From an uncultured Pseudomonadota bacterium (GTDB lineage Bacteria > Babelota > Babeliae > Babelales > RVW-14): DNA of 64,000 bases. The stretch spans positions 9,237 to 73,236 of the forward strand of contig CAZMQG010000002.1 of assembly GCA_964568625.1 (NCBI GenBank), read 5' to 3'. Below are positions 402 through 24,873 of this stretch, one piece after another (positions within the stretch are counted from its first letter, which is position 1; each line of letters starts with the position of its first letter). A program made the position numbers and the translations under genes. The notes under the pieces are model-generated. The model was not told the origin of the DNA. It made no database searches and saw nothing but the letters and a program-made list of their open reading frames with translations.

Positions 402-1700
402 ATGTCTTCAAATAAAAATATGATATCCCCTTTTGTCGGTGTGCTTATATGTATAAACACCATGATTGGTGCCGGGCTTTTTATTAATGCCGCTACTCTT
501 GCCCAAAAAGCAGGGCCATGGGGATTTGTAGGATATATTGTATCGGCATTGCTTATGTTGCCATTAATTTTGAGCGTCAGTACGCTTGCGAAATTACATC
601 CTGTTTCAGGGGGATTATACGTTTTCAGTAAAAATTACATTGGTAATTGGGCTGGATTTTTTAGTGGATGGAGCTATTTTCTGGGTAAAACGGCAGCAGC
701 AGGTCTTTTGATGCATAAATTTGTTCAATTTTTTCAAGTACAATTTAGTTTTTTTAATCAATTCCCTACGTTGGCTCTTGATTATTTTGTTTTAATTTTT
801 TTAATATCAATTCATATTATTGGTGCAAGAATTGGGGGAAAACTTCAGTATTTATTTGTAACTCTTAAAATGTTGCCAATATTTTTTGTTTTTGTATTTG
901 GTTTTATTACATTTGATACGGCATTTTATCAATTTGATATAAGCGATTTTTCAAGCCTATTTTTAATTATTCCGGTATGCGTTTTTGCATCAACGGGATT
1001 TGAAATTATTTGCTCGGTTGGGCACTTAATTACAGATTCTTCGAAAAATATCAAAAGTGTTATTTTGATTGCGTTTGGTATTGTTGTGTGTATAAATACA
1101 ATATTTCAAGGGGTTATTTTTGGGGCTCTGGGATGGGCAATATCAAGTTCAGGAATTCCAATTTTGCCATTGGCTCAAAAGGCTATCCCAACATATGAAA
1201 TTATCGGAAGAATATTAAATGGCTCTGTTTATGCAGCTATTTTGGGAGCCTGTTTTTCGATATTTACTGCAAATTGCTGGAACTTGTTTACATTAGCAGA
1301 AAATAACCATCTTCCGTTTAAAAATATTCTTACAAAGCTTTCAACAAAGCAGATCCCATGGGTTGCTTTAATTGTTGAAGGTTTTATAACAGCAATCATA
1401 TTGGCAATCACAAGTGCACAGTTGCCGTTGATGAATGTGGCGGTTTTTTCGCAGCTTATTGCTATGCTTCTTAGTGCAGTTGCAGCATTTTATGCTGCCA
1501 AATCTACTATTGATTTTGGATTAAGTCGATGGGTACCTATTTTAGGAATTTGTACTGCATCTTATATTTTATTTGTGTCGTTGTTTAATATTATAAAATT
1601 TGGAATATCATTTTCTTTTTTATCAATATTCTTAATTGGAATTGCAGCGGCAATAATTAAAATGGTGCCACGCAAGTGTGACACCAATAAAATTTCTTAG
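402..1700 (+). CDS. APC-superfamily amino acid permease
   Basis: 432 aa, about 12 hydrophobic segments, TMIGAGLF in TM1, HPVSGGLYVF, GFE motif in TM6. Confidence 0.88.
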   Translation: MSSNKNMISPFVGVLICINTMIGAGLFINAATLAQKAGPWGFVGYIVSALLMLPLILSVSTLAKLHPVSGGLYVFSKNYIGNWAGFFSGWSYFLGKTAAAGLLMHKFVQFFQVQFSFFNQFPTLALDYFVLIFLISIHIIGARIGGKLQYLFVTLKMLPIFFVFVFGFITFDTAFYQFDISDFSSLFLIIPVCVFASTGFEIICSVGHLITDSSKNIKSVILIAFGIVVCINTIFQGVIFGALGWAISSSGIPILPLAQKAIPTYEIIGRILNGSVYAAILGACFSIFTANCWNLFTLAENNHLPFKNILTKLSTKQIPWVALIVEGFITAIILAITSAQLPLMNVAVFSQLIAMLLSAVAAFYAAKSTIDFGLSRWVPILGICTASYILFVSLFNIIKFGISFSFLSIFLIGIAAAIIKMVPRKCDTNKIS

Positions 1701-1717
1701 TATTTTAAAAAATAGTA

Positions 1718-2611
1718 CTAGTCGTTTCTAACTCTTCTTTTCTTAGATTTAGACTCACGTTTTGTTGGAGCTTTTCGTTTTAGAGAAGTTGTTTTTGTTT
1801 TTTCAGTAGGTAGTGTGGATGCTGTTCGGAGTCTTACCGTAGGAAGATAAAGATCTCTGAGTAAGGAAAAGCTGAACATATGCAAAACATCTGCAGGTAC
1901 TATTGTTTCAGGATTTTTTGCTTCATAATAATATCCTGCATAAATTTTTGCCAAATCCTGTGCGGTGTCCATAATTACGCCTGCTTTAGGTTTATTTTGT
2001 GCAGGAGTATTTTTGTAAATATGGCTATAGATTTTTTTATATCCGTCGCTAATTCCCTGAGTCTCTAAAATTTCATCTGCCATTTTTATAATAAGAACCA
2101 ATCTGTCTTTTAATGCAGGTATGATAAAACTTTTTAAAAATTCGACAGGAACTTTTTTTGATGTTTCTATTCTTTTACTTGTTAGTATTTTCCACGTATT
2201 ACAAAATTGTGCCAGATTTTTTCTAATATAACCTTCAACGCTGTCTGTAGAGTTATTTTTTGATGTTGATGTGTCTTCAGGATTTAGAAGTACGGTTCCT
2301 GCTTTTAGCTCAGTTTTTTGTTTGATGATGTTTGCCAGAAGGTGTGCTGTGATTGTATCTTGAATTATGCCTGATATAAGTTTTTCAAAAAGAAACTCGC
2401 GAGTTTCGGGTTTTGCATAAGATTTTTTGCTGCTGAGTTCTTTAGTGATCCAGTTGGAAACTTCTTGTTTTAAATCTTTATCTTGTCTCATTTCCAACAT
2501 TAATTCTCCCCAGGTGAGAGTTTCGTCCGGTTGAACTGTTGCGGCATTAACGCATGGATTAAATAAACCCAGCGTCAATATTGATAACGAGAGGATTTGA
2601 ACTCTTTTCAT
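1718..2611 (-). CDS. Secreted hypothetical protein with basic NLS-like C-terminus
   Basis: 297-aa ORF; Sec-type signal peptide ending VNA; C-terminus KRKAPTKRESKSKKRRVRND; shares GIIxDTxxAHLLA motif with neighbour. Confidence 0.7.
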   Translation of the reverse strand: MKRVQILSLSILTLGLFNPCVNAATVQPDETLTWGELMLEMRQDKDLKQEVSNWITKELSSKKSYAKPETREFLFEKLISGIIQDTITAHLLANIIKQKTELKAGTVLLNPEDTSTSKNNSTDSVEGYIRKNLAQFCNTWKILTSKRIETSKKVPVEFLKSFIIPALKDRLVLIIKMADEILETQGISDGYKKIYSHIYKNTPAQNKPKAGVIMDTAQDLAKIYAGYYYEAKNPETIVPADVLHMFSFSLLRDLYLPTVRLRTASTLPTEKTKTTSLKRKAPTKRESKSKKRRVRND

Positions 2612-2656
2612 AATAAGTCCTTTCCTTTTTCCATTTTTTAACAGACTACCAACACT

Positions 2657-4990
2657 TTATAAACGCGATTTTAAACTTTCTAATTTTTGATTTAATTGAT
2701 TTAGTTTAGTTTTTAATTCAGTCAGGTTATTACGAAGTTGGAGAAGGGCTCCCTGAAGTTTTTCGCTTGGGTGCATCTCTATGGTGGGTTTAGCTGCAAA
2801 TAAGTCTTTTAATGCATCAGGAATATTTATTTGTCCAGGTATAGGTTTAGTAATTGGTTTACTATGGAGCTCGGATTGTGCATATTTCCCTCTGTATTGC
2901 TGAATTACTTTTGTGAAATTTTCATATAACATTGGGGCATATTTTTCTTGTTTCATTTTCTCAGATAACCCAGATTGTGCTCTTTGAGTGATTGAATAAT
3001 AAATTATGCTGTGAATGTAAACTTGATGCATTGTGATAAGGAATTTGGCAAGTTCTATGTCTATAAAGTATTTTGAATCGGAATTAAAAAGATCAAGTAA
3101 TTTGGCAAGGGCATCGTCTTTAAGTCCTAATGATGTGGGAATTGTACGCATGTATAAGTCTCGATTTTCATATATATACCAACTTTGGATTTTGTTTGAT
3201 AGATATTCGTTCAAAATTCTTTGGGCAAAAAATTCTCCTAATGTTTCAATTACTTCTAATTTACTTTTAAATTTGGTGTCAATTTGTGCTTGCATAACAG
3301 GTCTTAATTGCTCGGGTATTTCACTTAGTATTCTTGCATACAAAGCCTTTTTGTCCTGTTCGCTAAGATATGGATTTAGTAGATTTTGATAAATGCATGA
3401 TTCTATTGCGCTTAAAATCGCTTTTTCATTTCCCTTTGTCGATTTGATTTTTGTTCTCAATTTTTCCTGGATAATTTCCTTACTTTCAGGTTTAAATATA
3501 TTAAAAAAGGCAAGAATGTCTTTTTCACCATCTACTGTTCCTACGATTTCTCCGGTTATTTTCAGTATTAAATCAATTCTTTTTGACAAATAAACTCGAA
3601 GGTCTTCCATTGATGTGGACGCAATATCTCTTCCTGAAGAATCTTTTGTTAAGAAAAAATTTCTGAAAATTGATATGAAATTTTTCCAGAATTCTTGTGA
3701 ATGATCTTTGTAATAATCTGATTTAGCCTTAAAATATGTTTCGTATGACTGGCCGAGAATTTTTTTTGATTCTGGGTCATGCCAATTCCAGTCATAAAAA
3801 AGTATTAGAAATGTTGTCCATGATTCAGTTAGGGGTTCTAGTTTTTCTTGAATTTTGTTTTTTAAGCTGTTTAAAAACACTTCCATGTTTATTGGGTTTT
3901 CCAATACTTCATTTAAGCTTATTTCTTTACCACTTATTTTTTTTGCTTTTACGCATTCTGCTAGTAAATGAGCGATCAGTGTATCTGAGATAATGCCTTG
4001 AATGAATATTTTTAGAGCTTCAGATGTTGTTGGAGCTGCTATATGTTTTAGTCTTTCTTTTGCATCATTTGGGTACTGGAATTGAAAAGTTGTATTGCTT
4101 GATATTTCTATTAATTTATCTTGAATTATAGGTTTTAATTTGTTGAGTTCATCTGAAATTTCTCCATTCTTACAGGATCCTTTTTTTTCGTATTCATAAA
4201 AGTCTTCTAAAAAAGCTCTCCAAGATATTTCATGAGGCATTTTTATTTTATAATATGCTCTTATTTCGATTGGCTGTGGTTTTTCATCTAAACCAAGTTC
4301 AGAAAGTGTACTTGAGTAATCAGATATTTCTTTAAAACTTATTTTTGTAACTTCAGTTTGATCCGCAATCCCTAATTTTTTAAGGATCTCAAATCTTAAC
4401 GTTCCAATTGTTTTATTCGAAGGGATTAAAAAATTGTCAGGGATTTCTACATTGTCCAATATAACTTTAAAAGAGATGGGCTGAGGTTGAATGATGGTTA
4501 GTTCTAATGTTTTTTTATTGAATTTTACAAGTGTTTGATTGGTGCTTAATTTTTTCCCTGCAAGTGTTAATTTTTGTTCAAAATTTTTATGACCTGTGAC
4601 TCTTGAAATTAGATTTTTTAAATCTAATATTGTAATACTTGGACTTACTAAAAATTCTGCATGCGTTTTGCTTGGTAATTCTATTGTAATTATGATTTCA
4701 GTTGTTTTATTTTTGGGATATACCCAACCATTTTCAGTTTCGACGACGAAAATAGAATTTTCTTTTTTCAAATCTCCAATAAATTCTATTTTTACGGGGT
4801 CTTTTATTTTGAGTTCTTTTTTTATTGCTTGGGCAATAATATCTTGGTCTAACTTTTCGAAATTTACGTGAATTTTCCCGATTACGTGGCTATCGTTATT
4901 ATGATCTACCAGATACACCAGAGTTCCAAAACTATTTTGTATAAGCAAAAATAGAAATATAACTGAAATCACAATTGATTTTAACTTCAT
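2657..4990 (-). CDS. Secreted hypothetical protein with tandem ubiquitin-like domains and C-terminal coiled coil
   Basis: Start moved to ATG 4990 (AGGAGAG upstream); signal peptide; VSPSITILDLKNLISRVTGHKNFEQKLTLAGKKLSTNQTL resembles ubiquitin; heptad tail. Confidence 0.7.
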   Translation of the reverse strand: MKLKSIVISVIFLFLLIQNSFGTLVYLVDHNNDSHVIGKIHVNFEKLDQDIIAQAIKKELKIKDPVKIEFIGDLKKENSIFVVETENGWVYPKNKTTEIIITIELPSKTHAEFLVSPSITILDLKNLISRVTGHKNFEQKLTLAGKKLSTNQTLVKFNKKTLELTIIQPQPISFKVILDNVEIPDNFLIPSNKTIGTLRFEILKKLGIADQTEVTKISFKEISDYSSTLSELGLDEKPQPIEIRAYYKIKMPHEISWRAFLEDFYEYEKKGSCKNGEISDELNKLKPIIQDKLIEISSNTTFQFQYPNDAKERLKHIAAPTTSEALKIFIQGIISDTLIAHLLAECVKAKKISGKEISLNEVLENPINMEVFLNSLKNKIQEKLEPLTESWTTFLILFYDWNWHDPESKKILGQSYETYFKAKSDYYKDHSQEFWKNFISIFRNFFLTKDSSGRDIASTSMEDLRVYLSKRIDLILKITGEIVGTVDGEKDILAFFNIFKPESKEIIQEKLRTKIKSTKGNEKAILSAIESCIYQNLLNPYLSEQDKKALYARILSEIPEQLRPVMQAQIDTKFKSKLEVIETLGEFFAQRILNEYLSNKIQSWYIYENRDLYMRTIPTSLGLKDDALAKLLDLFNSDSKYFIDIELAKFLITMHQVYIHSIIYYSITQRAQSGLSEKMKQEKYAPMLYENFTKVIQQYRGKYAQSELHSKPITKPIPGQINIPDALKDLFAAKPTIEMHPSEKLQGALLQLRNNLTELKTKLNQLNQKLESLKSRL

Positions 4991-5014
4991 CACAACTCTC
5001 CTTTTCACAAACAT

Positions 5015-6655
5015 TTAAAACTCTATTTTTTCTCCGGTCATTTCTTTAGGTTGTTGTAACCCTATAAAATTTAATATAGTCGGTGCAATACTTGAGATGC
5101 CAAATTTTGGTTTGATTGACCAGCTCTCTTCTTGCTTGCTTTGCATATCTTTTGATACAAGAATAAAAGGCACCGGATTTTGGGTATGTGCCGTAAGAGG
5201 GGTGCCGGTTACAGGATCTATCTTTTCTTCGGCATTACCGTGATCCGCTGCAATAAACATTGTCCCATTCATTTTTTCAACAACAACTTTGTACAGTTGT
5301 TCAAGTTGCTTGTCCAAGTATTCACAGGCCTTAACCGTTGCATTAAAATCTCCGGAGTGGCCAACCATGTCGGCGTTGGCATAATTAATCAGATAAAAAT
5401 CTGCTGGTTCTGTCTTTAACGAGTTTAAAACAGTTTCTGTTATTTCGTTTGCACGCATTTCAGGAGAATTGATATAGTTTTCGGTTTTGATGGATGGAAT
5501 TAAAACCCGTGTTTCATTTGGTGCTTGGTGATCTTGCATTCCGTGGAAAAAGTAGGTTACGTGGGCATATTTTTCAGTTTCAGCGATTATAAATATTTTG
5601 CGGATTTTATTATCAGGGGTTGTTTTTTCTGCCAGTACGTCCAGTATGGTGTTTGTTATCTTTTCGCGTTCAAATAAAACGTCATTGTTAAATTTTGTAA
5701 AATCTTGATTATACCTGGTTGGTGTTATGAAGAATGCAAGTTCGTGATTTGTGCTACACAGCTTTTGCACTTTGAATTTGTCGAAATTTGGGTTAATAAA
5801 GCTTTCTGTTATTTGTTGTGCGCGGTCAGGTCGGAAATTGAAAAACACAATTCCATCGCCGAATTTAATAAAGCCATTTGGCTCAATAAGTGTAGGCTTG
5901 ACGAATTCGTCAGTTATCCCTGCAGTATATGCCCGGTTGATAATAGTTTGCCAAGTGGTGGACGTAGAAAATTGAATTGCAGAGTTGCTCTGGAATTGTT
6001 GAAGGTGGTCTTTAACATGAACCGCTGGGTTTGAGCCAATTAGCATATCATAATATTGCTTAGTTCTATCCCAATTATTATCTCGGTCCATGGCATAAAA
6101 TCGACCTGCTACGCTTGCAATTTTGCCACAGTTTAGCTTTTTACATTCGTCTTCTAAGCTATTGAGATAAATTGAAGCGCTTTTGGGTGCTACATCTCTA
6201 CCGTCAAGAATTACGTGTATAAATACATTAGTAAGCCCAGATTTTTTTGCCAATTTTAAAAAGGCGTATAGGTGAGACTCGTGGCTATGTACTCCCCCGT
6301 CTGAGAGTAGGCCTATAAGATGAAGTGCTTTATCTGTCTTTTTTATTTTATTAAAATTGTTTATTAACATTTTATTTTCAAAGAAATCACCGGATGTAAT
6401 TTCATCATGAAATTTTTTAAGAGCAGATTCAACAACGCGACCGGAGCCTATTGTTAGGTGGCCGACTTCCGAGTTTCCGATGTATCCTGGGGGCAACCCA
6501 ACATATTCGCCTGAGGCATTCAGCAGAGTGTGTGGGTAATTTTGTGTTATCCAATTCCAAAAAGGCATTTTGGCATGCGCTACCGCATTACCTTGCGATT
6601 TGAGGCTGTGGCCGAACCCGTCAAGAATTACAAGCATTATTGGGGATTTATTCAT
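5015..6655 (-). CDS. gpmI: 2,3-bisphosphoglycerate-independent phosphoglycerate mutase
   Basis: ILDGFG, GNSEVGH, LSDGGVHSH, GRFYAMDRDNNWDR, AETEKYAHVTYFF, NADMVGHSG, ADHGNAE motifs. Confidence 0.97.
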   Translation of the reverse strand: MNKSPIMLVILDGFGHSLKSQGNAVAHAKMPFWNWITQNYPHTLLNASGEYVGLPPGYIGNSEVGHLTIGSGRVVESALKKFHDEITSGDFFENKMLINNFNKIKKTDKALHLIGLLSDGGVHSHESHLYAFLKLAKKSGLTNVFIHVILDGRDVAPKSASIYLNSLEDECKKLNCGKIASVAGRFYAMDRDNNWDRTKQYYDMLIGSNPAVHVKDHLQQFQSNSAIQFSTSTTWQTIINRAYTAGITDEFVKPTLIEPNGFIKFGDGIVFFNFRPDRAQQITESFINPNFDKFKVQKLCSTNHELAFFITPTRYNQDFTKFNNDVLFEREKITNTILDVLAEKTTPDNKIRKIFIIAETEKYAHVTYFFHGMQDHQAPNETRVLIPSIKTENYINSPEMRANEITETVLNSLKTEPADFYLINYANADMVGHSGDFNATVKACEYLDKQLEQLYKVVVEKMNGTMFIAADHGNAEEKIDPVTGTPLTAHTQNPVPFILVSKDMQSKQEESWSIKPKFGISSIAPTILNFIGLQQPKEMTGEKIEF

Positions 6656-6779
6656 GGTAAATCACTTTAATTTTGATATATTTTCAAAAAACTTATTTTT
6701 ACGTTACAATGCATCTTATACTTAAACTTAAATTATGTTTGAATTTTAAAAATTGTTATTTTTTAAAAAGGGTAACACT

Positions 6780-7208
6780 ATGAAGCGTTATTTGGCAATA
6801 TTATGCAGCAGTATTTTTCTTTTTTCTTCCTTGGGTTTTGGTTTTATGCATGCTGTTGACCAGAGTGAGTCAGAGTGCGTTTTACAGAATTCTGTTGATA
6901 AATTGGCTGAAGATATATCTTCAGGTGCTGTTTCTGTAGAAGAAGTTTCCTTGAGTGATATTTCTGTAGATGATATTGATTTGGTCGAAAAAGATTATTC
7001 TCTTAAAGATCTGACGTTTGGGGATAAATTACAGTTGCTGTGGTTTGCAATAACAACCGGTGAACTTAAAAATATGGTAATAAAACACGTTTCAACAAAT
7101 AAACGTAAATATATATGTGGTGCGGCAGCAAGTGCAGCAGTTTTGGCGGTAGTGACTGCATATTATTTAACTCAAAAAAATCAAAAGGTTCTTGCCCCTA
7201 AAAATTAA
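6780..7208 (+). CDS. Hypothetical exported protein with C-terminal hydrophobic anchor
   Basis: ATG at 6780 (MKRYLAIL...) gives a signal peptide; acidic middle; C-terminal GAAASAAVLAVVTAYYL followed by a basic tail. Confidence 0.6.
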   Translation: MKRYLAILCSSIFLFSSLGFGFMHAVDQSESECVLQNSVDKLAEDISSGAVSVEEVSLSDISVDDIDLVEKDYSLKDLTFGDKLQLLWFAITTGELKNMVIKHVSTNKRKYICGAAASAAVLAVVTAYYLTQKNQKVLAPKN

Positions 7209-7210
7209 GT

Positions 7211-8017
7211 ATGAATGAACGGCATCTTTTTACTTTATTTTGTAAAGATTTATCACAATTTATCTCGGGCAGAGTGGGGTGTCAGGTTGAAATTTCTGAC
7301 CGTGATTTATGGCAGAGAATTACCAAAGTTTTGCGCTTGAGAGCCGGAGAGAATATACTGTTATTTGATGAGAATGTTCATGCTGATGTTATTGTTTTGG
7401 AAAAAACATTTGCGAAAAAAGAGCTTGTGGTCTTATTTATCGAATCTGTAAATTCTAACCAACCGCTCAAGCCGAATATAACGTTGATGCCATGTCTTTT
7501 AAAAAAAGATGCGTTTGAAGATATAATATATGCAGCTGCTCAAATGGGTGTTAATAAAATCATTCCGATTTTATCAGATAAAGTGCAACGTTCATGGGGG
7601 GAAAAAAAAGAGCGTGAGCGACTGTTTAATATAATGGTGGCTGCATGTGAGCAGTCGAAAAACTTTTTTTTACCTGAAATTTGTGAACCTGTTAAAATTC
7701 AGGATATTACAAGACAGCTATCTGGAGATTCTATATCTCAGATACGAACATCCGAAAATATACCAAGTCTAAAAATTTATTTTGATCAAAGCGGGGCATC
7801 TTTTGTTGATTTACTTAAAAAAATTAAAGAAAACAATGCCCAAAAGAATTATGACTTGGATATTGTTCTGTTCTTTGGCCCTGAAGGGGGCTTAACTACC
7901 CAGGAAGAAAAGCTTTTATCTGACCTTCATTTTGAGACTTATGCTCTTACCCCTACAATATTGCGTGCACGCGAGGCCGTAATTGTTGGATTGGGTGGCG
8001 TAAGAAGTGCGAGATAA
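7211..8017 (+). CDS. rsmE: 16S rRNA m3U1498 methyltransferase
   Basis: KVLRLRAGE, QMGVNKIIP, AACEQS, FGPEGGLT, ILRAREA SPOUT motifs. Confidence 0.92.
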   Translation: MNERHLFTLFCKDLSQFISGRVGCQVEISDRDLWQRITKVLRLRAGENILLFDENVHADVIVLEKTFAKKELVVLFIESVNSNQPLKPNITLMPCLLKKDAFEDIIYAAAQMGVNKIIPILSDKVQRSWGEKKERERLFNIMVAACEQSKNFFLPEICEPVKIQDITRQLSGDSISQIRTSENIPSLKIYFDQSGASFVDLLKKIKENNAQKNYDLDIVLFFGPEGGLTTQEEKLLSDLHFETYALTPTILRAREAVIVGLGGVRSAR

Positions 8018-8160: not shown

Positions 8161-8871
8161 TCATTTTCTGATCGCAAAGTACTGTGTTTTTAGATATAGT
8201 GGCGAAATCTGATTTTCTATATTTTCTTTTTTTAACCAACATTCGTATGCAATTTGGCCAATTACTTTGGCACTGGCAAGTAGTGGTTCATCAAGAATTA
8301 CTGCCTGATCTGAGAGTAAATGTTTGATATTGGTTTTATAAAGTTGGCTGCCCTGACCACAGAATAAAATTTTCTGATCTTTAAATTTTGATTTTATGTC
8401 ATCCAATAAAATATCTATATTTTGGCAACCCTGTGTTGATTCCAGTATGTTTTTGGCATCAGTTTTGGAAACTAAGAAGTAGGCTTCGTTGTTATAAGCG
8501 TTTAAGAGGGTCACAATATTTTGAATATTCGTATTTTTTGTATCTGATTTACTATCCAGTGCTTCTTTAGCAAGTGCATCAAGGCCACTGATTCCTATTA
8601 ATGGAATTTTATTATTAAAAGCAATACCATTTATGGTTGCTATTGTGACACGCAGTGATGTGAAGGCTCCGGGGCCTTTGTCGACAGCTATAAAAGATAA
8701 GTTTGTAAGTGATAAGTTATGTTTTTTTAAAAGAGAATCTAAAAACATGATCAGACTTGAACTAGCACGTACATCTAATTTTGTTAGAGAATCCAGGCAG
8801 ACCTGGTCCTGAAAGAGTGCGATATCAAGCTTATTGTGTGTTCCATGAATGCTGACAAATTTAAATGACAT
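8161..8871 (-). CDS. tsaB: tRNA threonylcarbamoyladenosine biosynthesis protein TsaB
   Basis: AVDKGPGAFTSLRVTIATINGIA matches the TsaB GPGSFTGLR motif; PLYLK at the C-terminus. Confidence 0.9.
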   Translation of the reverse strand: MSFKFVSIHGTHNKLDIALFQDQVCLDSLTKLDVRASSSLIMFLDSLLKKHNLSLTNLSFIAVDKGPGAFTSLRVTIATINGIAFNNKIPLIGISGLDALAKEALDSKSDTKNTNIQNIVTLLNAYNNEAYFLVSKTDAKNILESTQGCQNIDILLDDIKSKFKDQKILFCGQGSQLYKTNIKHLLSDQAVILDEPLLASAKVIGQIAYECWLKKENIENQISPLYLKTQYFAIRK

Positions 8872-8875
8872 AAAT

Positions 8876-9058
8876 TTATTCGTGTTGTTTTTTTAGCTTT
8901 TGGCGTTGGTAAAATAGACTGAAAGCGTCATCTTTTAATGTATTTTCTTTTTTTTCTATAATTTTACCACAATTTATACATTTCCATCCCTCGAAATTGA
9001 TGAAGTGATCAAAGAATGACTGAACAACCAGCAAACCTCCACATTTAGGACACTTCAT
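8876..9058 (-). CDS. Small zinc-ribbon protein
   Basis: MKCPKCGG...WKCINCG (two CxxC); AGGAG upstream; ends 4 bp before tsaB start. Confidence 0.75.
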   Translation of the reverse strand: MKCPKCGGLLVVQSFFDHFINFEGWKCINCGKIIEKKENTLKDDAFSLFYQRQKLKKQHE

Positions 9059-9286
9059 GCAATCTCCTCTTTTTCTAGGTTTTTGCTCTAATTATCTTGA
9101 AGTTTAAATTTAAGACAATCAGACATGATAAACCCTTCTCTATTCTTTATGGTAGCATAATAACGATTAATGTCCTAAGCATTTTTTAAAAAATTAAAAA
9201 TTGTCGTATTTGCGCTTATAAACATGGTTTAATTCAAAAAACCTATTTTTAAACAAAATCATATTTTTTGTTAAATTTGCAGGGTG

Positions 9287-10627
9287 CTAGTTTTTGGGGT
9301 TTTTTAATTTATCAATGGTTTCTTTTTCTAGTATTTGAATTTCCAAATCAATTTTGTTTTTGTTTTCCTGCTCATTTTTGAAAATTGACTGTTCTTTAAC
9401 TTTTGAGTCACACACTTGCTCAGTTAATTCTATTTTATTCTGACATTCTTTTTTTTGAGTGCCTAACTCTGAAATTAATTTTTTCATGTCAGTTGTTATT
9501 TTTTGATTTTCATCAACTTTATTTAATAATTCTTTGTTTGTAACTTGAAGTTCAAACATCTGGCGGCCAAGCATTTCGGTTTTCTCCCTGAATTGTACTT
9601 TTGCCAGTTGCAGTTCTGGGAATTCACTGGCTTTTTTACCACTTATTTCTTCGATTATATTAATGGTAAGAGCCCTTATGTCGTTATCAGAAATGGATTT
9701 TTGTTTTTGTATGGAATTAATTTCGTAAAGAAATTTCAACCGAATTTGTTTTTTTTGTGCAGCATTTAGCTCTAAATTTTCAATGATGGCGTCAGATTTT
9801 TTAATTGCTGTTGTGATAGAATCTAATTGAGTATTTTTGTTTATAATTTGGTTGTAATTTGGGTCGGATAAGTATTTTGATGAACGGAGTGTCTTGTCAA
9901 ACCATATTTTTTGTTTTTCAAACTTATTCATAAAATCACTTACCTGATTTGGATCTTCTGCGTCTAGAATTATTTTTTGTAAGAATGTCGTATTTGTATT
10001 GAATTCTTTTTCAGCTGAAATTTTTGCGTTTTCGGGGATGGGGTCAAAATTTATCGAATATTTTTCTAAATTATGCATTTCAACAGGGAGGATTTGGTCT
10101 ACTGATTTTTGCAGATTGGCCAAAGTCATTTGCTCGCGTTGAGCTTTGCGAATTTTAAGGGCTTCTTCGTCAGCCTTATCGATTATTTCAAGAATCTTCA
10201 GTGTGGCATCTTTTTTGAAATTTAATATATCTGTTTTTATTTTATCATTAATTATATTTAGTTCCTGTTTTGCTTCTTTCGTTAGATCTTGAGTCTCTTG
10301 AGTAGCGGATTTTTTAATCGAGGTAGTTTCATTGTAGGCTTTTTGGCATATGGTTTCGATATTGTGTTCAAGTTTTTTATTTATTTGAGAGACCTCTTCT
10401 GTTGTTTCTTCTTGTAATTTTTTTACTCTTAAGTCTGTTTGAGCTTCCAAGTTCTCGGCCTTTTGTTCTGCTTTTTGTAAAAGATCAACTATTTCTGTGC
10501 TTTGATTTTGTTTTAGATCAGTTAAAATTTGTTTGAACATATTGGATTTGGTGGCGTTTAAAGTATTCATCGATGGATAGCTAATGATAGCTATTAAAAA
10601 TAATAAGAATAATCTAATATTTGCCAT
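9287..10627 (-). CDS. Exported coiled-coil protein with 11-residue repeats
   Basis: 446 aa, N-terminal hydrophobic signal, ten consecutive 11-mers at aa 52-161, heptad-like C-terminus. Confidence 0.7.
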   Translation of the reverse strand: MANIRLFLLFLIAIISYPSMNTLNATKSNMFKQILTDLKQNQSTEIVDLLQKAEQKAENLEAQTDLRVKKLQEETTEEVSQINKKLEHNIETICQKAYNETTSIKKSATQETQDLTKEAKQELNIINDKIKTDILNFKKDATLKILEIIDKADEEALKIRKAQREQMTLANLQKSVDQILPVEMHNLEKYSINFDPIPENAKISAEKEFNTNTTFLQKIILDAEDPNQVSDFMNKFEKQKIWFDKTLRSSKYLSDPNYNQIINKNTQLDSITTAIKKSDAIIENLELNAAQKKQIRLKFLYEINSIQKQKSISDNDIRALTINIIEEISGKKASEFPELQLAKVQFREKTEMLGRQMFELQVTNKELLNKVDENQKITTDMKKLISELGTQKKECQNKIELTEQVCDSKVKEQSIFKNEQENKNKIDLEIQILEKETIDKLKNPKN

Positions 10628-10815
10628 TTACGTCCCCTCTTATCTAGTTTCCCCCGATTTTAAAATCTATTCTTCTAAGAATATTCTAGAGAATTGGGAA
10701 CACTTATTTCAATAAATTTCAATAAAACGTAGCTTTTTTTTACTGACAGGGTATCATAGAAACCTACAGCACCTCTTTTTTATCAATTGATCAATCGGTC
10801 GTGCAGGAGACGTGA

Positions 10816-13308
10816 ATGATAGTTAAAAGTAAAAAAATATTAACTTTGGTTTTCTCGATATCAAGCCTATTTTTTTTGGCTTCAAATTTTGTTTCACTAA
10901 ACGCTGAATCAGAGCAAGGTGTACAAGGCAATCTGTCTGATTCTGACGATTTAAATTCTGACAATTTGGCAGATTTGAACTCTGAGGAAAAAAAGCCGAA
11001 CAAGGTAATTAATCAAATTATTGTTAAGGGGAATAAAAACGTTGGAACCCCTGTTATTTTAAATAGAATTCCATATAAAGTTGGAGATGTTTTTGATCAG
11101 GGCAAAAGTGCTGACGCAATCAATAATTTGTGTGATCTGGGCTATTTTAGGCAAGTACAGCTTGAAGGTGAAAATGTTTCCCCGGAATCAATGAATTTGA
11201 TTGTTATTGTAGAAGAGAAAAAATTGATTGAAAAAGTGGAGTTTAATGGGAATAAGGTTGTTACAACTAAAAAGTTAAGAGAGACCTTAAATGTTGATAA
11301 AATCAACACTATTGATGAAATATCAGCTCAAAAATTGATCAAAGAGATAAAAAAGGCTTATAAAGAGGAAAATAGGCATAAGCTTAATATAGATTTTGAT
11401 CTTCTTCCAAGTAAAGACAATGCGGATAAAGTTATCTTGTTGTTTAAGATTAATGAAGGTCCAAAGTCCTTAGTCAAAAGAGTGTATTTTTCCGGAAATA
11501 AAAATATTCCTGATCGTAAATTGCGAAAAGTTGTTTTTACGAGAGAAGATTGGTTGCTTAGCTTTTCTGATGGGGCAGGGACTTATGACGAAGAGGCTGT
11601 GGAAATAGATAAGCATCGTATTGAATACTTTTATCGTGACAATGGATATTTGCAAGCAAAGGTCTATAAAAGTAAAATTGATTTTTCTAGAAATGAAAAA
11701 GATGTTACCGTAATTTTTTATATTAAAGAAGGCTCTCAGTTTATCGTTCGGGATATTCGAGCTCCCGGAGATGAAATTTATGGAGAAAGTGAGCTTATGC
11801 CATTGATTAGCCTTGAATCAGGTAAACCCTTTTCGCAGGCAAAGCTTGTCGAGTCTATTAACTTAATTCGAGAATTGTGGGGGAAAAAAGGATATATCTA
11901 TGCTGATGTTTATCCTCAGATAAAGCCCGATGAAGAAAATAATGTTGTTGATGTAACTTTTAATGTTGAGCGTGGCAATAGGATGTATGTCAATAAGATT
12001 GATATTACCGGTAACAAGTACACTCATGATAAAGTTATTCGTCGTCAACTGGATGTTTATGAGGGTGATCTTATAACAAGTAAAAATATGCGTAGATCGA
12101 AGAATCAGGTAGAATATCTTGGTTACTTTGAGCGGGGTGGAGTGGATTGGAAAATTCACCGCATCACAGATGATTTGGCTGATCTTGAGATGATTGTTCA
12201 GGAAGCCAAAACTGGAAATGCAAATGTAGCATTGAGTTATGGTAGTGATAAAATAACACCACAACCGTCGCTTCACGGATCCGTAAATGTTCAAAAAAAT
12301 AATTTATTTGGACTTGGATATAATACAAGTGCCATGGTTCAGGCAAGCAGGCATCATTTACAAAGGTTAGAGGGAAGCTTTGAAGATTCCCATATTTTTG
12401 ATACCAATATTTACGGGTTTGTAAATCCATACTGGCATTGGATGGAATATAGCCAGTGGGGAAGGTCTGTTGATCGCAGTCCAATACAAAAAATTGCCGG
12501 TTTTGATTTACGGCTTGGTTTTCCTTTGACCAGTATTGATAAGCGGTTGCAGGTGGTTGTTGACATGGGGTATGAACATATTAGAAATAATAATCCAAAA
12601 GCTCTTAATGATAGGGTTCGCCCAATTGTTGACAGAACATTTCAAGCTGGTGATTTAACTTGGATTGGACTTGATTTTATTAAGGATACTCGTAACCATA
12701 AAGTTTATCCAAGTGATGGTTATAAGATTATTTTATCTACAAGACTTGCTCCAACAAAAATTAATAACAATTTTGGTTTTTTCAAAGCTGAATTGGATGC
12801 CAGTTGGTATTATGCTTTAATCGGACAAGATTCGCTTGTTCTTGCAATGCGTGCCAGGGGCGGTCGAGTTAGTGATTTAAGTAATAAAACCATCCCATAT
12901 AAAGAACTTTATCAAATGGGTGGGCAGGATACGGTCAGAGGTTTTTTATGGGGTGGCGTTGGTCCTGCTTGGAAACCTAGCGATGCGCCACTTGGTGCAA
13001 GAAATGCCGTTTTATTTGGAACAGAGTTAATATTCCCACTGATTGCAGATTATTCAATGAAGGGACATGTTTTCTACGATGCAGGTTGTGGATGGAGTAC
13101 CCCGCCAATTACACTTAAAGATGATGTGTATAATATTAACGATTATATAGTACGAAATAAATTTGATTTACGACATTCTATTGGATTTGGTGTAAATTTG
13201 GTTAATCCGTTCCCCGCCAAAATCGATTGGGGTTTCAAGCTTGATCGTAAAAAGAACATGGGCGAATCTCCTTACGAATTCCATCTGAGTATGAATTACG
13301 CCTGGTAG
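10816..13308 (+). CDS. bamA: Outer membrane protein assembly factor BamA
   Basis: Multiple POTRA repeats (GNKNV, GNKVV, GNKNI, GNKYT), GGQDTVRGF motif, C-terminal MNYAW. Confidence 0.95.
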   Translation: MIVKSKKILTLVFSISSLFFLASNFVSLNAESEQGVQGNLSDSDDLNSDNLADLNSEEKKPNKVINQIIVKGNKNVGTPVILNRIPYKVGDVFDQGKSADAINNLCDLGYFRQVQLEGENVSPESMNLIVIVEEKKLIEKVEFNGNKVVTTKKLRETLNVDKINTIDEISAQKLIKEIKKAYKEENRHKLNIDFDLLPSKDNADKVILLFKINEGPKSLVKRVYFSGNKNIPDRKLRKVVFTREDWLLSFSDGAGTYDEEAVEIDKHRIEYFYRDNGYLQAKVYKSKIDFSRNEKDVTVIFYIKEGSQFIVRDIRAPGDEIYGESELMPLISLESGKPFSQAKLVESINLIRELWGKKGYIYADVYPQIKPDEENNVVDVTFNVERGNRMYVNKIDITGNKYTHDKVIRRQLDVYEGDLITSKNMRRSKNQVEYLGYFERGGVDWKIHRITDDLADLEMIVQEAKTGNANVALSYGSDKITPQPSLHGSVNVQKNNLFGLGYNTSAMVQASRHHLQRLEGSFEDSHIFDTNIYGFVNPYWHWMEYSQWGRSVDRSPIQKIAGFDLRLGFPLTSIDKRLQVVVDMGYEHIRNNNPKALNDRVRPIVDRTFQAGDLTWIGLDFIKDTRNHKVYPSDGYKIILSTRLAPTKINNNFGFFKAELDASWYYALIGQDSLVLAMRARGGRVSDLSNKTIPYKELYQMGGQDTVRGFLWGGVGPAWKPSDAPLGARNAVLFGTELIFPLIADYSMKGHVFYDAGCGWSTPPITLKDDVYNINDYIVRNKFDLRHSIGFGVNLVNPFPAKIDWGFKLDRKKNMGESPYEFHLSMNYAW

Positions 13309-15010: not shown

Positions 15011-17515
15011 ATGCAAGTTGTAAACACGGCAGCTAAGCTTAAAGTTGGCGTATTATTTGGTGGAAAATCAATTGAACGAGAAGTATCATTAAATTCCGGG
15101 CGAACAATTTGTGACCACCTTGATACTGATAAATACGAAGTTATTCCTTTGTTTCAAGATGAAGATGGGACATTGTATAATCTTCCATGGCATTTTTTAC
15201 ATCGTGGTAAGATTTCCGATTTTCAATCAAGATTGGCAAAAGAGGCTCAAAAAATTACCTGGGATGATCTAAGAAATTTGGTTGATTTTGTTTATTTGGC
15301 AGTTCATGGGCGGTTTGCTGAAGACGGAACCATTCAAGGTATGCTTGAAATTTTGCATATTCCATATTTGGGTAGCAAAATATTTGGAAGTGCTCTTGGA
15401 ATGAACAAATTAGTTCAAAAAGAGATTTTTAGTACCAATGGAATTGATGTTGCTGCCGGAATTACTATTCATAAATCTGAAGTTGATTCTTTAAATGTTG
15501 ATGATGTTCTACTTCGTCTCGAAAAAGCCGGAACAAAATTGCCATGCATTGTAAAGCCAATTCACGAGGGATCCAGTCTTGGCGTGTCAAAAGTTTTAAC
15601 AGAAGATGAGCTTATTCCAGCAATAAAAAAAGCTGCTTATGTTGATGCTCGCAGAGTTCAAGATGTCATTGTCGAAGAAAAAATTGAAGGCATGGAATTT
15701 GTTTGTGTATCATTGCAGAAAGCTGTTAAAAAAGATGGGAAGATAGAAGCGGAATGGTTTACATTTCCCATAACGGAAGTTGTACCAGAAGGACAGAGTA
15801 TTTATGATTATGAACAAAAATATATGCCTGGCCGTGCAACAAAAATTACTCCGGCTCGTTGTTCAGATCAGGATTTGCAGAAAATTTCGCAAACTTGTAT
15901 AAAGGCATCAATTCTTTTGAATTTCGCAACAATTTCACGAATTGATGGTTTTTTGACAAAAGATGGAAGAGTCATTTTAATTGATCCGAATACTTTGACG
16001 GGAATGTCGCCTGCAACGTTTTTATTCCACCAGGCCGCAGAGTATGGAATGAGTCACACCCAACTTATAAATTATTTGATCGAAACTGAATTAAAGTTAG
16101 CAGGAATGCTTGAATTTTCAGGTGAAGATAACGGAGGCAAGGGAGCTTTTGTGGAAACTAATAAACATGATGAAAAAAAGTTACGAGTAGCGGTGTTGTT
16201 AGGTGGTGCCACAAACGAACGTGAAATTTCGCTTGAATCCGGAAGAAATATTTGCTATAAACTTTCTCCTCAAAAGTATGAATGTATTCCACTTTTTGTT
16301 ACCAATTCACATGAGCTTTATAAATTAGATCAACGTTTATTGATCAAAAATTCGACAAGAGAAATATCAAATATGCTTGATAAGGAGCAGAATGTTTCTT
16401 GGTCAGCATTGCCTGATATTTGCGATTTTGTCTTTATTGGGTTGCATGGTGGACTTGGCGAGGGTGGAGGCGTTCAGGGTGCTCTTGAAATGTTGGGCAT
16501 TCCCTACAATGGATCAGGTGTTTTACCCAGTGCTCTATGTATGGACAAATTTAAGACAAATAATTTTTTACGAGGGCATGGCTTTGATGTACCCGATTCT
16601 TTTTTGGTTACACTTCAAGATTGGAATAAAAAATCCATCAAAGAAAGAGACGAATTTATTGATGCAAATTTAAAAGATTATAACTATCCACTTATTCTAA
16701 AACCTCATGATGACGGTTGCAGTGTGTTTGTTAAAAAAGTTAAGAACCGTGTTGAGTTAATTGATTTGATTGATCAATATTTTGCTCAATCTGGGAAGTC
16801 TGTTGCGATGTTTGAAGAGTTGATAATTGGTACTGAGTTGACATGCGGTGTGATAGGAAACGATGAAAATGTCAGGGCTTTAGTTCCATCTAACACTGTT
16901 GCTAAAAATGATATTCTTTCAATTGAAGAGAAGTTTTTGCCAGGAGAGGGAGAAAATCAAACCCCTGCAAATCTTCCAACTGATACTCTTGAATTTGTTA
17001 AAAAGGTAATGGTTGATGCTTATAAGTCTGTAGGTTGTGCCGGATATGCTAGAATTGACTGTTTTTATCAAGATGCAAATCAGAGTAAAACAGGTAAACC
17101 TCGTGTGGTAATTTTAGAATTTAACACATTACCCGGTATGACTCCTGCTACTTGTATTTTCCATCAAGCGGCAGAATGTGGAATTAGGCCAATGAATTTT
17201 ATTGATAAAATAATTGAACTTGGTTTTGCTAATCATGCTGAAAAATTGAACGTGACGCGTATAAAAAATAATGAACAAGAACAACAGGCACCGGAGCTAG
17301 TACTAGAGCCTGTCGTTCTTGGGGAATTAAATTCTGAATCTGTAGGGGCTGCTGTAAAAAAAGATGAACAATCAATGAGTCTTGATCATTCCCAAGAAAA
17401 ACATCATCGAAAAAAGTCCAAATCGAGCAAGAGTGTGAATTTTGATTCTGCTGAGCAGTCTGATTCGCCTCAATCTCAGGATATTGATGATAAGATTACA
17501 ATGAACTTATTTTAA
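15011..17515 (+). CDS. ddl: D-alanine--D-alanine ligase with two tandem ATP-grasp Ddl domains
   Basis: Two complete motif sets: GGKSIEREVSLNSG/HGRFAEDG/KPIHEGSS/RIDG and GGATNEREISLESG/HGGLGEGG/KPHDDGCS/RIDC/EFNTLPGM; charged low-complexity tail. Confidence 0.88.
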   Translation: MQVVNTAAKLKVGVLFGGKSIEREVSLNSGRTICDHLDTDKYEVIPLFQDEDGTLYNLPWHFLHRGKISDFQSRLAKEAQKITWDDLRNLVDFVYLAVHGRFAEDGTIQGMLEILHIPYLGSKIFGSALGMNKLVQKEIFSTNGIDVAAGITIHKSEVDSLNVDDVLLRLEKAGTKLPCIVKPIHEGSSLGVSKVLTEDELIPAIKKAAYVDARRVQDVIVEEKIEGMEFVCVSLQKAVKKDGKIEAEWFTFPITEVVPEGQSIYDYEQKYMPGRATKITPARCSDQDLQKISQTCIKASILLNFATISRIDGFLTKDGRVILIDPNTLTGMSPATFLFHQAAEYGMSHTQLINYLIETELKLAGMLEFSGEDNGGKGAFVETNKHDEKKLRVAVLLGGATNEREISLESGRNICYKLSPQKYECIPLFVTNSHELYKLDQRLLIKNSTREISNMLDKEQNVSWSALPDICDFVFIGLHGGLGEGGGVQGALEMLGIPYNGSGVLPSALCMDKFKTNNFLRGHGFDVPDSFLVTLQDWNKKSIKERDEFIDANLKDYNYPLILKPHDDGCSVFVKKVKNRVELIDLIDQYFAQSGKSVAMFEELIIGTELTCGVIGNDENVRALVPSNTVAKNDILSIEEKFLPGEGENQTPANLPTDTLEFVKKVMVDAYKSVGCAGYARIDCFYQDANQSKTGKPRVVILEFNTLPGMTPATCIFHQAAECGIRPMNFIDKIIELGFANHAEKLNVTRIKNNEQEQQAPELVLEPVVLGELNSESVGAAVKKDEQSMSLDHSQEKHHRKKSKSSKSVNFDSAEQSDSPQSQDIDDKITMNLF

Positions 17516-19909: not shown

Positions 19910-20989
19910 CTATTGTGATATTATTCCCTTTTTTTCATAAGCGTATGCTTTAAATTTTGCTCTCATAAGAGTATCAAGGATATGCTCTTTTTTGGTTTTA
20001 ATTCCATCATCTTGTTCTGGTTCCTCAAGAAAAGATACATTTCCGTTTTTTAAATCAATATCTATTTTATTATAGATTGAGGTTGGAATAGAAATGCCAA
20101 ATGATGTAAAATACCTGCAAAAGCAGTGTGTAAGAGACCATAATAAGTCATCAAGATCATCAAGGTGATCAATTATGCCGGAGAGTGCCAGTTTTTGTAT
20201 GTTGTTTGAAATTGATATGAATGATGGCCAAATTTCTTCGGCGCTGTTGTCGTCCCACACCGTTTTATCAAGTAATGTTTCAACAAAACGTAGTGTTACA
20301 TGTCTGAGGCGTTCTTTTGTTTTATGAGCATCAAATTTTTTCTGTAGATGGCTTACGCTTTGAGTTATTAATGCAAATATGTCGTTAGTAATTTGCTGTG
20401 TTACCTTTGTTTTGTTAAATATTTCTTGTTTTGCAAATTGTTCATTAAGTTGGTTTAATATTATTTTTTCAAGGTTTTTGCGTATTATTTCAAGCTCTGT
20501 CTTAAAACAGTCCTCTGTTTCGTCAAAATATCGGCCTAAGTATTCGTTAAAATTTTCAAGAAGAGAATTTGTTACTTTCCCAAGAATTAGGTCGCAAGAT
20601 TTTATTTTATTATGAAAAAGCCTCATTCCTACATATGTTATGGATTCATCAAGGTTTAAATCTGTGGTAATTTTTAAAAACTGAGCGATGTCTGATCCAT
20701 CATGCGAAAAAAGTTCTGTCAATTCAGGTTTATTATAATACTCTTTTACGTATTGTTGTAAAAATGTTTGATTTAAAATCGTTGTCCTTGAGACAAGGTC
20801 ACATGCTCGCGTTTGGGATTGCTCTGCCTGTTCATCAAAGTAAACTTTCAATGGTAATGTGCTTGATTGAAGAGGTGTGCCGTCGTTGATTTCGTCTTCA
20901 AAATCAACAATTTGTTGAAAATTTGCATTGCATGTAAAAAAACTAGTAATAAAGACAAAGATTACATAAAACAAATTTTTTGTTTTCAT
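19910..20989 (-). CDS. Secreted hypothetical helical protein
   Basis: 359-aa ORF, AAGGA RBS, signal peptide ending CNA. Confidence 0.65.
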   Translation of the reverse strand: MKTKNLFYVIFVFITSFFTCNANFQQIVDFEDEINDGTPLQSSTLPLKVYFDEQAEQSQTRACDLVSRTTILNQTFLQQYVKEYYNKPELTELFSHDGSDIAQFLKITTDLNLDESITYVGMRLFHNKIKSCDLILGKVTNSLLENFNEYLGRYFDETEDCFKTELEIIRKNLEKIILNQLNEQFAKQEIFNKTKVTQQITNDIFALITQSVSHLQKKFDAHKTKERLRHVTLRFVETLLDKTVWDDNSAEEIWPSFISISNNIQKLALSGIIDHLDDLDDLLWSLTHCFCRYFTSFGISIPTSIYNKIDIDLKNGNVSFLEEPEQDDGIKTKKEHILDTLMRAKFKAYAYEKKGIISQ

Positions 20990-21162: not shown

Positions 21163-22383
21163 ATGCCTCTTTACCAATATGAATCTTATAGTCGTCGTGG
21201 AAGTAAAGTTACCGGTACGGTAGATGCTACTTCGCTACAAATGGCAAAAGAGATTTTGCAGGGGCAGGATCTTTTACCAATAAGCATAAAAGAAGTTCAA
21301 TCGATTGAAGGTCAGACAGGATTTTCGCTTAAAAATTTATTCGAAAAAAAAATTGATTCGCGTAGTACGATTCTTTTTACGAAGCAGTTATCAGTACTTT
21401 TGAAGTCTTCCGTTCCTCTGTTGCAAGCCATAGAGCTTTTAACGGAGCAGTTTGAAGGTGCGTTTCGTAGAATTTTGATAAGAGTTAAAGATGGGCTTAA
21501 ATCAGGTCAACCGTTGGCAAAAGAACTTTCGCGATATCCAAAAATATTTACAAATGTTTATGTTCAACTTGTCCGAGCCGGTGAGGCAAGTGGCAAGCTT
21601 GATCTAATTTTATTTCGTTTAACCGACTATCTTGAAAAAGCGGAAGAGACTAAGAAAAATATAAAAAAGGCAATGTCATATCCAATTATTGTTATGTCGT
21701 TTGCTGTGCTTGTGGTAGTTGGATTGCTTGTTGGCTTAGTTCCGAAACTAGGTAGTATGTTTACACAAATGGGTAAAGAGTTGCCGTTGCCCACTCGTAT
21801 ATTGATTGGAATGTCTGATTTTTTTGTTAATAATTTTATACTTTTAGGTGTCGCATCAATTGCATCAGTTATATTTTTTATGTATTGGAAATCAACGCCA
21901 TCAGGCAAATATAAATTTGATTCTATTCTATTACGTTTTCCGCTAACGGCTTATTTTTCAAAAACTCGAGCAGTTGTGCAGTTTTGCAAAACTTTGGGTA
22001 TGCTTCTTGAAAGTGGTGTAAATTTGTCTGAGGCTCTTGATATTGTTTGCAATATTGTTGATAATGCAGTACTTGCTAAACAGCTGAACCAAGCTCGTGA
22101 CAAAATTATTAAAGAGGGTAAAATTTCAAAATACTTGCGTGAGACTGGCATTTTTCCTAATATTGCAATTTATATGATTGGAACAGGCGAGCAGTCAGGT
22201 AAGCTTGGTGAAATGCTTACGACTGTAGGAAGTGATTACGATAGGGAACTAACTGAGTTGACTGAAGGTTTAACTGCAAAAATTAATCCTATTATGACAG
22301 TTGTGATGGGTGTTATTATTGTGTTTATTATGGCGTCTATTTTCTTGCCGATTATGAGTATGACCGATTTGGCCGGAATTTAG
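21163..22383 (+). CDS. gspF: Type II secretion / type IV pilus inner-membrane platform protein (GspF/PilC family)
   Basis: MPLYQY start, QLSVLLKSSVPLLQA, LVRAGEASGKLD, AMSYP, LLESGV, GEQSGKL, FLPIMSM. Confidence 0.93.
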   Translation: MPLYQYESYSRRGSKVTGTVDATSLQMAKEILQGQDLLPISIKEVQSIEGQTGFSLKNLFEKKIDSRSTILFTKQLSVLLKSSVPLLQAIELLTEQFEGAFRRILIRVKDGLKSGQPLAKELSRYPKIFTNVYVQLVRAGEASGKLDLILFRLTDYLEKAEETKKNIKKAMSYPIIVMSFAVLVVVGLLVGLVPKLGSMFTQMGKELPLPTRILIGMSDFFVNNFILLGVASIASVIFFMYWKSTPSGKYKFDSILLRFPLTAYFSKTRAVVQFCKTLGMLLESGVNLSEALDIVCNIVDNAVLAKQLNQARDKIIKEGKISKYLRETGIFPNIAIYMIGTGEQSGKLGEMLTTVGSDYDRELTELTEGLTAKINPIMTVVMGVIIVFIMASIFLPIMSMTDLAGI

Positions 22384-22415
22384 GAAGTTTTATTAATTCG
22401 AATTGGGAGATATTT

Positions 22416-22862: not shown

Positions 22863-22865
22863 CGA

Positions 22866-24855: not shown

Positions 24856-24873
24856 TTTTAAACAAAAGATTTT

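Follow-up and report, generated by a model that had tools for sequence, protein, structure and literature searches.

A predicted exported protein of a Babeliales (Dependentiae) bacterium with a ubiquitin-family domain in an array of three ubiquitin-like units

The 64,000-nucleotide stretch of contig CAZMQG010000002.1 analysed here (the window) carries on its reverse strand a gene coding for a large protein with ubiquitin-like (UBL) units at its N-terminus, referred to below as the UBL gene and the UBL protein. Tandem UBL domains in a secreted bacterial protein had been proposed for positions 4247-4699 in an original prediction made from the sequence; this segment covers residues 106-256 when the ATG at 5014 is taken as residue 1, and spans the second and third beta-grasp units of the open reading frame (ORF) 2657-5014 (-), which has 785 aa in the mechanical ORF list. 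Counting from 5014 has to be abandoned, since the true start, as far as it can be read from the DNA, is most likely the ATG at 4990: an AAGGAG lies 6-8 nt upstream of it, all five database homologues begin MK(A/L)(K/R)S at the equivalent position, and the 5014 ATG comes directly after the stop of iPGM, the gene upstream. The numbering used below is that of the resulting 777-aa protein (785-aa numbering minus 8), in which a Sec-type signal peptide is followed by three units (D0, D1 and D2), an all-helical domain of ~490 aa and a five-heptad leucine zipper. The features of the gene are the following.

2657-4990 (-): UBL gene (whole), coding for a 777-aa predicted exported protein with three UBL units
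4925-4990 (-): Sec-type signal peptide MKLKSIVISVIFLFLLIQNSFG|T, residues 1-22 of the 777-aa form, as read from the sequence
4697-4924 (-): D0, first beta-grasp-like unit, residues 23-98, 76 aa, predicted fold
4478-4696 (-): D1, ubiquitin-family domain, residues 99-171, 73 aa, ~30% identical to ubiquitin
4250-4477 (-): D2, weaker ubiquitin-like unit, residues 172-247, 76 aa, better conserved in the family than D0 and D1
2786-4249 (-): lineage-specific all-helical domain, residues 248-735, helices only in the AlphaFold2 (AF2) model
3959-3997 (-): motif GIISDTLIAHLLA within the helical domain
2660-2785 (-): C-terminal tail ending in the five-heptad leucine zipper LQGALLQLRNNLTELKTKLNQLNQKLESLKSRL

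Though divergent, D1 is a true member of the eukaryote-type ubiquitin family, and demonstrably descends from eukaryote-type ubiquitin. Its Smith-Waterman score against human ubiquitin is 67, while 500 shuffles gave 26 ± 5 (z = 8.4) and none of them (0/500) reached 67. Against Pfam PF00240 it aligns over residues 109-165 with profile positions 1-57 of 72 (E 9e-5), at 22.6 bits, which falls below the gathering cut-off of 25.4 bits; PF00240 is matched by four of the five family members, with a best E of 5.3e-5. The comparison of the D1 family profile with a profile of 198 ubiquitin repeats (hhalign) gave a probability of 97.2% (E 4e-11, 67 columns), and a hidden Markov model of ubiquitin repeats scores D1 at 34 bits. 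A profile search of the PDB with the N-terminal 241 residues returned only ubiquitin, ubiquitin variants and the UBLs of ubiquilin and BAG6, all of them on D1. The domain retains the ubiquitin core together with Pro19, Thr22-Ile23, Lys27, Ala46-Gly47-Lys48, Leu50 and Leu56. The shuffles, the hhalign probability and the Pfam match bear out the alignment of this region with ubiquitin that had first been drawn by eye. As for the other beta-grasp families that could have been the closest relatives, neither ThiS, MoaD, TGS nor YukD is among the Pfam matches at E <= 1 of the UBL protein and four relatives, and an affinity of the units with these families was rejected; the top matches are to ubiquitin, ubiquilin and BAG6. 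A Pfam score under the gathering cut-off might also be taken as a sign of chance resemblance, or of a non-coding artefact. We regard this as next to impossible, as it is refuted by the shuffles, the profile-profile match and the concordant fold prediction, as well as by the conserved orthologues, the purifying selection acting on the gene and the conserved gene order, which are described below.

The unit that follows, D2 (TIGTLRFEILKKLGI...), gives no significant score when it is compared alone with ubiquitin (shuffle z = 1.6). Against the ubiquitin-domain profile, hhalign returns a probability of 59% (E 9e-5) with 60 columns in register, and 32 of its 76 columns are invariant within the family. 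The second and weaker unit of the original prediction is a probable ubiquitin-like unit by its profile and by the tandem alignments presented below; its predicted structure is of low confidence (predicted local distance difference test, pLDDT, 45-72). Pairwise comparison of D0, D1 and D2 by hhalign gave no signal, and therefore an internal duplication cannot be demonstrated by sequence.

The AF2 model of the full-length protein is poor (pLDDT 56) and shows three beta-beta-alpha-beta-beta units, then helices only. The N-terminal fragment (residues 22-262) modelled alone has a pLDDT of 74, with values of 80-91 for D0, 74-90 for D1 and 45-72 for D2. In this model D1 is predicted to adopt a beta-grasp fold (beta-beta-alpha-beta-beta, short helix, beta), the fold on which the original prediction depended. 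D0 is also predicted as beta-beta-alpha-beta-beta, and the possible third unit upstream would accordingly be a beta-grasp-like one by its predicted fold, although its sequence carries no ubiquitin signal. A Foldseek comparison of the N-terminal model with the PDB gave 216 matches at E <= 1e-3, and linear tetra-, tri- and di-ubiquitin, ISG15, OASL and the talin head are found there, with a best E of 8e-9; the alignments with tri- and tetra-ubiquitin span 232-254 of 241 columns, D0 included. Single ubiquitin is matched in the PDB with a TM score of 0.78 at 2.7 Å, and the ubiquitins of giant viruses and baculoviruses in the viral library at 1.6-2.2 Å; across both libraries, the D1 model superimposes on single ubiquitin with TM scores of 0.78-0.80 and 1.6-2.7 Å over 74-78 columns. 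With the full-length model, Foldseek returned ubiquitin matches only.

The lengths of the three units (76, 73 and 76 aa) match the polyubiquitin period of ~76 aa. Single HMMER alignments run from D1 into D2 over two consecutive ubiquitin repeats and are nearly gap-free (P0012, P0038, P0054), while D0 and D1 align weakly on consecutive repeats of P0044. In an exhaustive search of 1.84 billion representatives, all matches outside the family are limited to profile positions ~88-236; they are proteins with 3-11 ubiquitin repeats, and the nearest of them with a name are eukaryotic polyubiquitins from a fish and a diatom. The nearly gap-free alignment of D1-D2 on consecutive repeats supports, without proving, a descent from a polyubiquitin fragment, and the most likely origin that we infer for the array is the capture of a polyubiquitin-like gene fragment. 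In the form in which it is found here, D1 ends in ...TLELTIIQPQP and joins D2 through TIIQPQPISF (...LELTIIQPQPISFKV...), and D2 leads into the helical domain. There is no Gly-Gly after any unit in any homologue, in agreement with the integral, non-conjugatable UBLs that had been proposed; because Gly-Gly is lacking at the junctions and termini, the array would be neither processed nor conjugated.

The surface through which ubiquitin is recognized has been replaced in D1, where Pro stands in place of Leu8, Thr in place of Ile44, Glu in place of His68 and Thr in place of Val70. Across five relatives, position 8 is Pro in all five, position 44 is Thr in four and kept as Ile in one, position 68 is either Glu or Ile, and position 70 is either Thr or Asn, so that the patch is hydrophobic as a set in none of the five. 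This replacement is the main argument against canonical docking on the proteasome or on ubiquitin-binding domains (UBDs). The gene itself is under purifying selection: compared with two orthologues, dN/dS is below 1 in every segment, with values of 0.14-0.64 across the domains of the mature protein and a maximum of 0.82 for the signal peptide. Conservation is unevenly distributed. Between the window and the L002 orthologue (8847-11180), identity is 39-43% over D0 and D1, the regions of the protein with the lowest conservation, and 72-76% over D2 and the helical domain; dS is ~3.1 in D0 against 0.5 in the helical domain, a difference of about six-fold. This points to a mosaic-looking gene with a recombined or fast-evolving N-terminal module (D0/D1).

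These observations bear directly on the function that had been suggested for the protein, namely that of a mimic whose UBLs dock on host proteasome receptors, UBDs or ubiquitin-pathway enzymes and divert the host system. In favour of this idea, a eukaryote-type UBL is found in an exported protein (as judged by its signal peptide) of a bacterium from a parasitic phylum, Ala46-Gly47-Lys48 and the core of the fold are retained in D1, and the array as predicted looks like ISG15 and linear chains of two, three or four ubiquitins, which have dedicated host readers. Several observations speak against the docking step: the canonical recognition patch is lost in D1 (Pro/Thr/Glu/Thr), Gly-Gly is absent, D0 and D1 change fastest, the ubiquitin signal disappears in distant members of the family, and an analogous first hypothesis for BfUbb, the ubiquitin homologue of Bacteroides fragilis discussed below, was overtaken by a function unrelated to a host. 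We therefore consider a functional ubiquitin mimic of this type unlikely.

The most conserved part of the UBL protein is its helical domain, for which searches of Pfam, NCBIfam, PHROGs and the PDB gave no significant match. The best PDB match of the profile of residues 249-777 is a HisZ fragment with an E of 0.015, which is not significant, and in Pfam the domain gives only a sub-threshold match to DUF4441 (E 0.002). In the zipper, which makes up the last 33 residues, Leu is present at positions 1, 5, 8, 12, 15, 19, 22, 26, 29 and 33, a perfect a/d pattern, and the AF2 model has a helix at 743-776. The signal peptide at the other end of the protein begins with a basic n-region, continues with a hydrophobic core of 13 residues and ends with small residues at -3 and -1; it contains no lipobox Cys. 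This pattern is kept in every homologue, and as far as the signal is concerned the claim of a secreted protein is upheld.

The family to which the UBL protein belongs is tiny and lineage-specific. Only five full-length homologues were found among 5.8 billion clustered proteins, and they collapse to one 50%-identity representative among the 1.84 billion; one of them has already been automatically named "MAG: ubiquitin-like domain-containing protein [bacterium]". When the family alignment was used to scan 185,579 species-representative genomes (GTDB representatives), no relative came up, and there is no homologue among the ORFs that adjoin iPGM in the nearest Babeliales/Dependentiae representatives (L003-L007, L024, L044). 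A distant member, P0009 (551 aa), has the same signal peptide and three units, a helical domain and the same zipper. In a related genome, L083 (Logan ERR7850082), positions 4763-7966 are syntenic with 2657-4990 of the window and contain two genes in place of one: a 574-aa gene with a signal peptide, three beta-grasp-like units, the motif domain and a zipper, and a 489-aa gene with a signal peptide, the helical domain and a zipper. Their parts map to the front and the back of the 777-aa protein, which indicates a fusion or fission event. The zipper is kept in P0009 and in both L083 paralogues, and while P0009 and the 574-aa protein of L083 retain the architecture, the ubiquitin sequence signal is undetectable in them.

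The UBL gene and its exported paralogues, which have the helical domain and the zipper in common, form a tandem cluster. The neighbour immediately downstream has the following features.

1718-2611 (-): 297-aa paralogue, with its own signal peptide and the same helical-domain family
1727-1780 (-): basic tail KRKAPTKRESKSKKRRVR of this paralogue, resembling a bipartite nuclear-localisation signal (NLS)

Residues 264-529 of P0009 are homologous to this neighbour over its full length (E 1e-24), and the region of the motif (GIIxDTxxAHLLA) is common to the neighbour (E 8e-7) and P0009. The signal peptide and the tail KRKAPTKRESKSKKRRVR of the 297-aa paralogue are both kept in its orthologues, and the tail fits the bipartite nuclear-localisation consensus. 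Such a tail is unexpected in a bacterium, and on its sequence features suggests a partner targeted to the host nucleus. The gene order iPGM, UBL protein, 298-aa protein is kept in three other contigs.

The source organism is a Babeliales (Dependentiae) bacterium from sludge and wastewater. Among the GTDB representatives, the adjacent iPGM is closest to that of a Candidatus Babeliales metagenome-assembled genome (51%) and to those of other Dependentiae (44%), and in several studies, metagenomes of wastewater, activated sludge, bioreactors and biogas fermenters contain DNA nearly identical to positions 1500-7000 of the window. Characterised Dependentiae are intracellular parasites of protists, whose putative effectors typically carry signal peptides (PMC6561590). 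In Chromulinavorax destructans, signal peptides are present in 44% of the coding sequences and in 78% of the ankyrin-repeat proteins, and the proteins carrying them were interpreted as Sec-dependent secreted factors for host manipulation (PMC6561590). The window also contains a possible exit route for such proteins, at 16 kb from the UBL gene.

21163-26043 (+): type II secretion operon, with GspF, four prepilin-type pseudopilins and a GspK-like ORF

GspF is recognized by Pfam T2SSF (E 3e-58); the four ORFs after it have the prepilin motifs FTMMEMM, FTMIEMM, FTLIEVI and FTIIELI at their N-termini, and are followed by the GspK-like ORF. This type II secretion system (T2SS) is a candidate route across the outer membrane for Sec-dependent proteins, and could possibly serve the UBL protein as well.

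The same context leaves room for a protein that stays in the cell envelope, in which the beta-grasp units would be structural or ligand-binding, like those of other exported bacterial proteins, the helical domain and the zipper would form a scaffold, and no host target would be involved. A signal peptide proves only Sec targeting, nearly half of the Dependentiae proteome has one, the window also encodes BamA, MlaD and transporters, and the patch for eukaryotic partners is lost. What fits poorly with this explanation is that D1 has its affinity with eukaryotic ubiquitin rather than with ThiS, MoaD, TGS or YukD (none at E <= 1), that the protein has a very narrow distribution for an envelope component (a single 50%-identity representative in 1.84 billion) and is absent beside iPGM in other Dependentiae, and that the NLS-like tail of the adjoining paralogue would be meaningless in a bacterium. 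A periplasmic or envelope protein is thus a serious alternative, if on balance a somewhat unlikely one.

Other genes of the window are mentioned here for completeness. Six tandem ORFs at 29143-53393 (+) have hydrophobic signal-like N-termini and lactonase/TolB-type beta-propeller repeats; five of them, of 1334-1634 aa, are 47-56% mutually identical, the sixth is a relative of 1082 aa at ~25% identity, and several have overlapping stop and start codons. An 834-aa protein encoded at 15011-17515 (+) contains two complete D-alanine--D-alanine ligase modules in tandem (residues 11-359 and 391-740). Two further ORFs have no Pfam match: one of 359 aa with a hydrophobic signal-like N-terminus at 19910-20989 (-), and one of 446 aa at 9287-10627 (-), whose position beside BamA is kept in related contigs.

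Taken as a whole, we see even chances that the UBL protein is a Sec-exported, probably host-directed and lineage-specific protein in which a captured polyubiquitin fragment has been reused as a non-conjugatable module. The analysis establishes the architecture, the descent of D1 from ubiquitin, the features of the signal peptide, the taxon, the cluster of paralogues and the purifying selection; export beyond the periplasm, a host target, the role of the module and its polyubiquitin origin are parts of this proposal that we infer. The UBL array would act as a stable N-terminal module for interaction or spacing that cannot be conjugated, while the helical domain fused to it would carry the conserved and presumably active part; through its C-terminal zipper the protein would oligomerise, and its paralogues might take part in this. 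After crossing the inner membrane by Sec, it could leave the cell through the T2SS encoded nearby or in vesicles, and act on the protist host jointly with the neighbouring NLS-tailed paralogue. A more specific variant seems rather improbable to us. In it, the parasite would have placed a bacterial signal peptide before a captured polyubiquitin fragment and removed its cleavage and conjugation sites, and would now secrete an uncleavable linear tri-ubiquitin-like chain; host proteins that read linear or tandem ubiquitin-like signals (adaptors of autophagy, xenophagy or innate defence) would be decoyed or anchored by this chain, with the helical domain delivering an effector activity and the zipper multimerising the decoy.

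Several points weigh against a host-directed protein built on a captured polyubiquitin fragment. With regard to the array, D0 gives no sequence signal with ubiquitin (hhalign 7%), and D2 has the right topology in the AF2 model, but at a low confidence. As for the capture from a eukaryote, no phylogeny can prove it at ~30% identity, and any transfer is old, because the GC content of the gene (0.32-0.33) matches its surroundings; a recent horizontal transfer was rejected for the same reason. The helical domain is without recognisable relatives, so an activity is not assignable to it. With regard to export, a signal peptide alone is weak effector evidence, given the 44% of proteins with one in the phylum, and release past the periplasm is putative. 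In favour of the proposal, short contigs from one sludge RNA-seq run lie on the UBL gene and on iPGM, but this run may contain DNA.

Eukaryote-type ubiquitin is almost absent from bacteria, and the closest precedent, by analogy, is BfUbb, which had a signal sequence and no Gly-Gly and was first proposed as an inhibitor of the host E1 (PMC3352274). Later work revealed it as a toxin used between bacteria and aimed at a periplasmic peptidyl-prolyl isomerase (PMC5705921, PMC11467351), and it is thereby also a caution against reading a host target into the protein described here. The two are alike in being bacterial, in their descent from eukaryote-type ubiquitin, in the cleavable signal sequence and in the lack of a C-terminal Gly-Gly (PMC3352274); for BfUbb, the last two features mean that it is exported and cannot be conjugated. 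They differ in that BfUbb is a single 76-aa domain with 63% identity to ubiquitin and an interbacterial toxin of a free-living gut commensal, whereas the UBL protein has three diverged units (~30% identity at best) in 777 aa, a novel helical domain, and belongs to Babeliales. The precedent does raise the idea of a weapon of the same kind, taken up by competitors and poisoning a periplasmic target, which would also be a ubiquitin homologue with a signal peptide and without Gly-Gly. The much lower identity and the multidomain architecture speak against it, no immunity or transporter genes for such a weapon are evident nearby, and obligate intracellular parasites, the lifestyle suggested by PMC6561590, rarely meet competitors; we hold this to be very improbable.

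BfUbb was described in 2018 as the sole bacterial ubiquitin homologue (PMC6194340), and a literature search for bacterial effectors with PF00240 returned nothing relevant. The UBL protein is a second and independent case, from another phylum and built differently, as an integral three-unit array with polyubiquitin spacing within a large exported protein. The finding is tempered by the homologue already auto-annotated as ubiquitin-like, by a docking surface that is not conserved and by a function that is presumptive.

Among eukaryotic systems, linear polyubiquitin, ISG15, FAT10 and OASL share with it the head-to-tail ubiquitin folds with a period of ~76 aa, and the best Foldseek matches come from this group; unlike them, the UBL protein has neither Gly-Gly nor the Ile44 patch, and carries a bacterial signal peptide and a large non-ubiquitin domain. 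Ubiquilin/Dsk2, BAG6 and Rad23 are comparable as non-conjugated UBLs inside larger proteins, and ubiquilin and BAG6 are the next-best PDB sequence matches after ubiquitin. The integral UBLs of these proteins keep the hydrophobic patch that binds proteasome receptors, which D1 does not have.

Closest in setting are the ankyrin-repeat proteins of C. destructans, putative Dependentiae effectors which likewise combine a eukaryote-type domain with a Sec signal peptide in a parasite of protists (PMC6561590). The substrates of the Legionella T2SS include eukaryotic-like proteins (PMC6617341), and T2SS genes are likewise available in the genome of the UBL protein. The difference from both is that the domain used here is ubiquitin itself and not an ankyrin, F-box or U-box domain, and that secretion and host targeting are presumed. 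Should the protein reach the host, ubiquitin itself would join the eukaryotic components that intracellular bacteria have put to new use, and the protein would offer a handle on the nearly unstudied effector biology of the Dependentiae.

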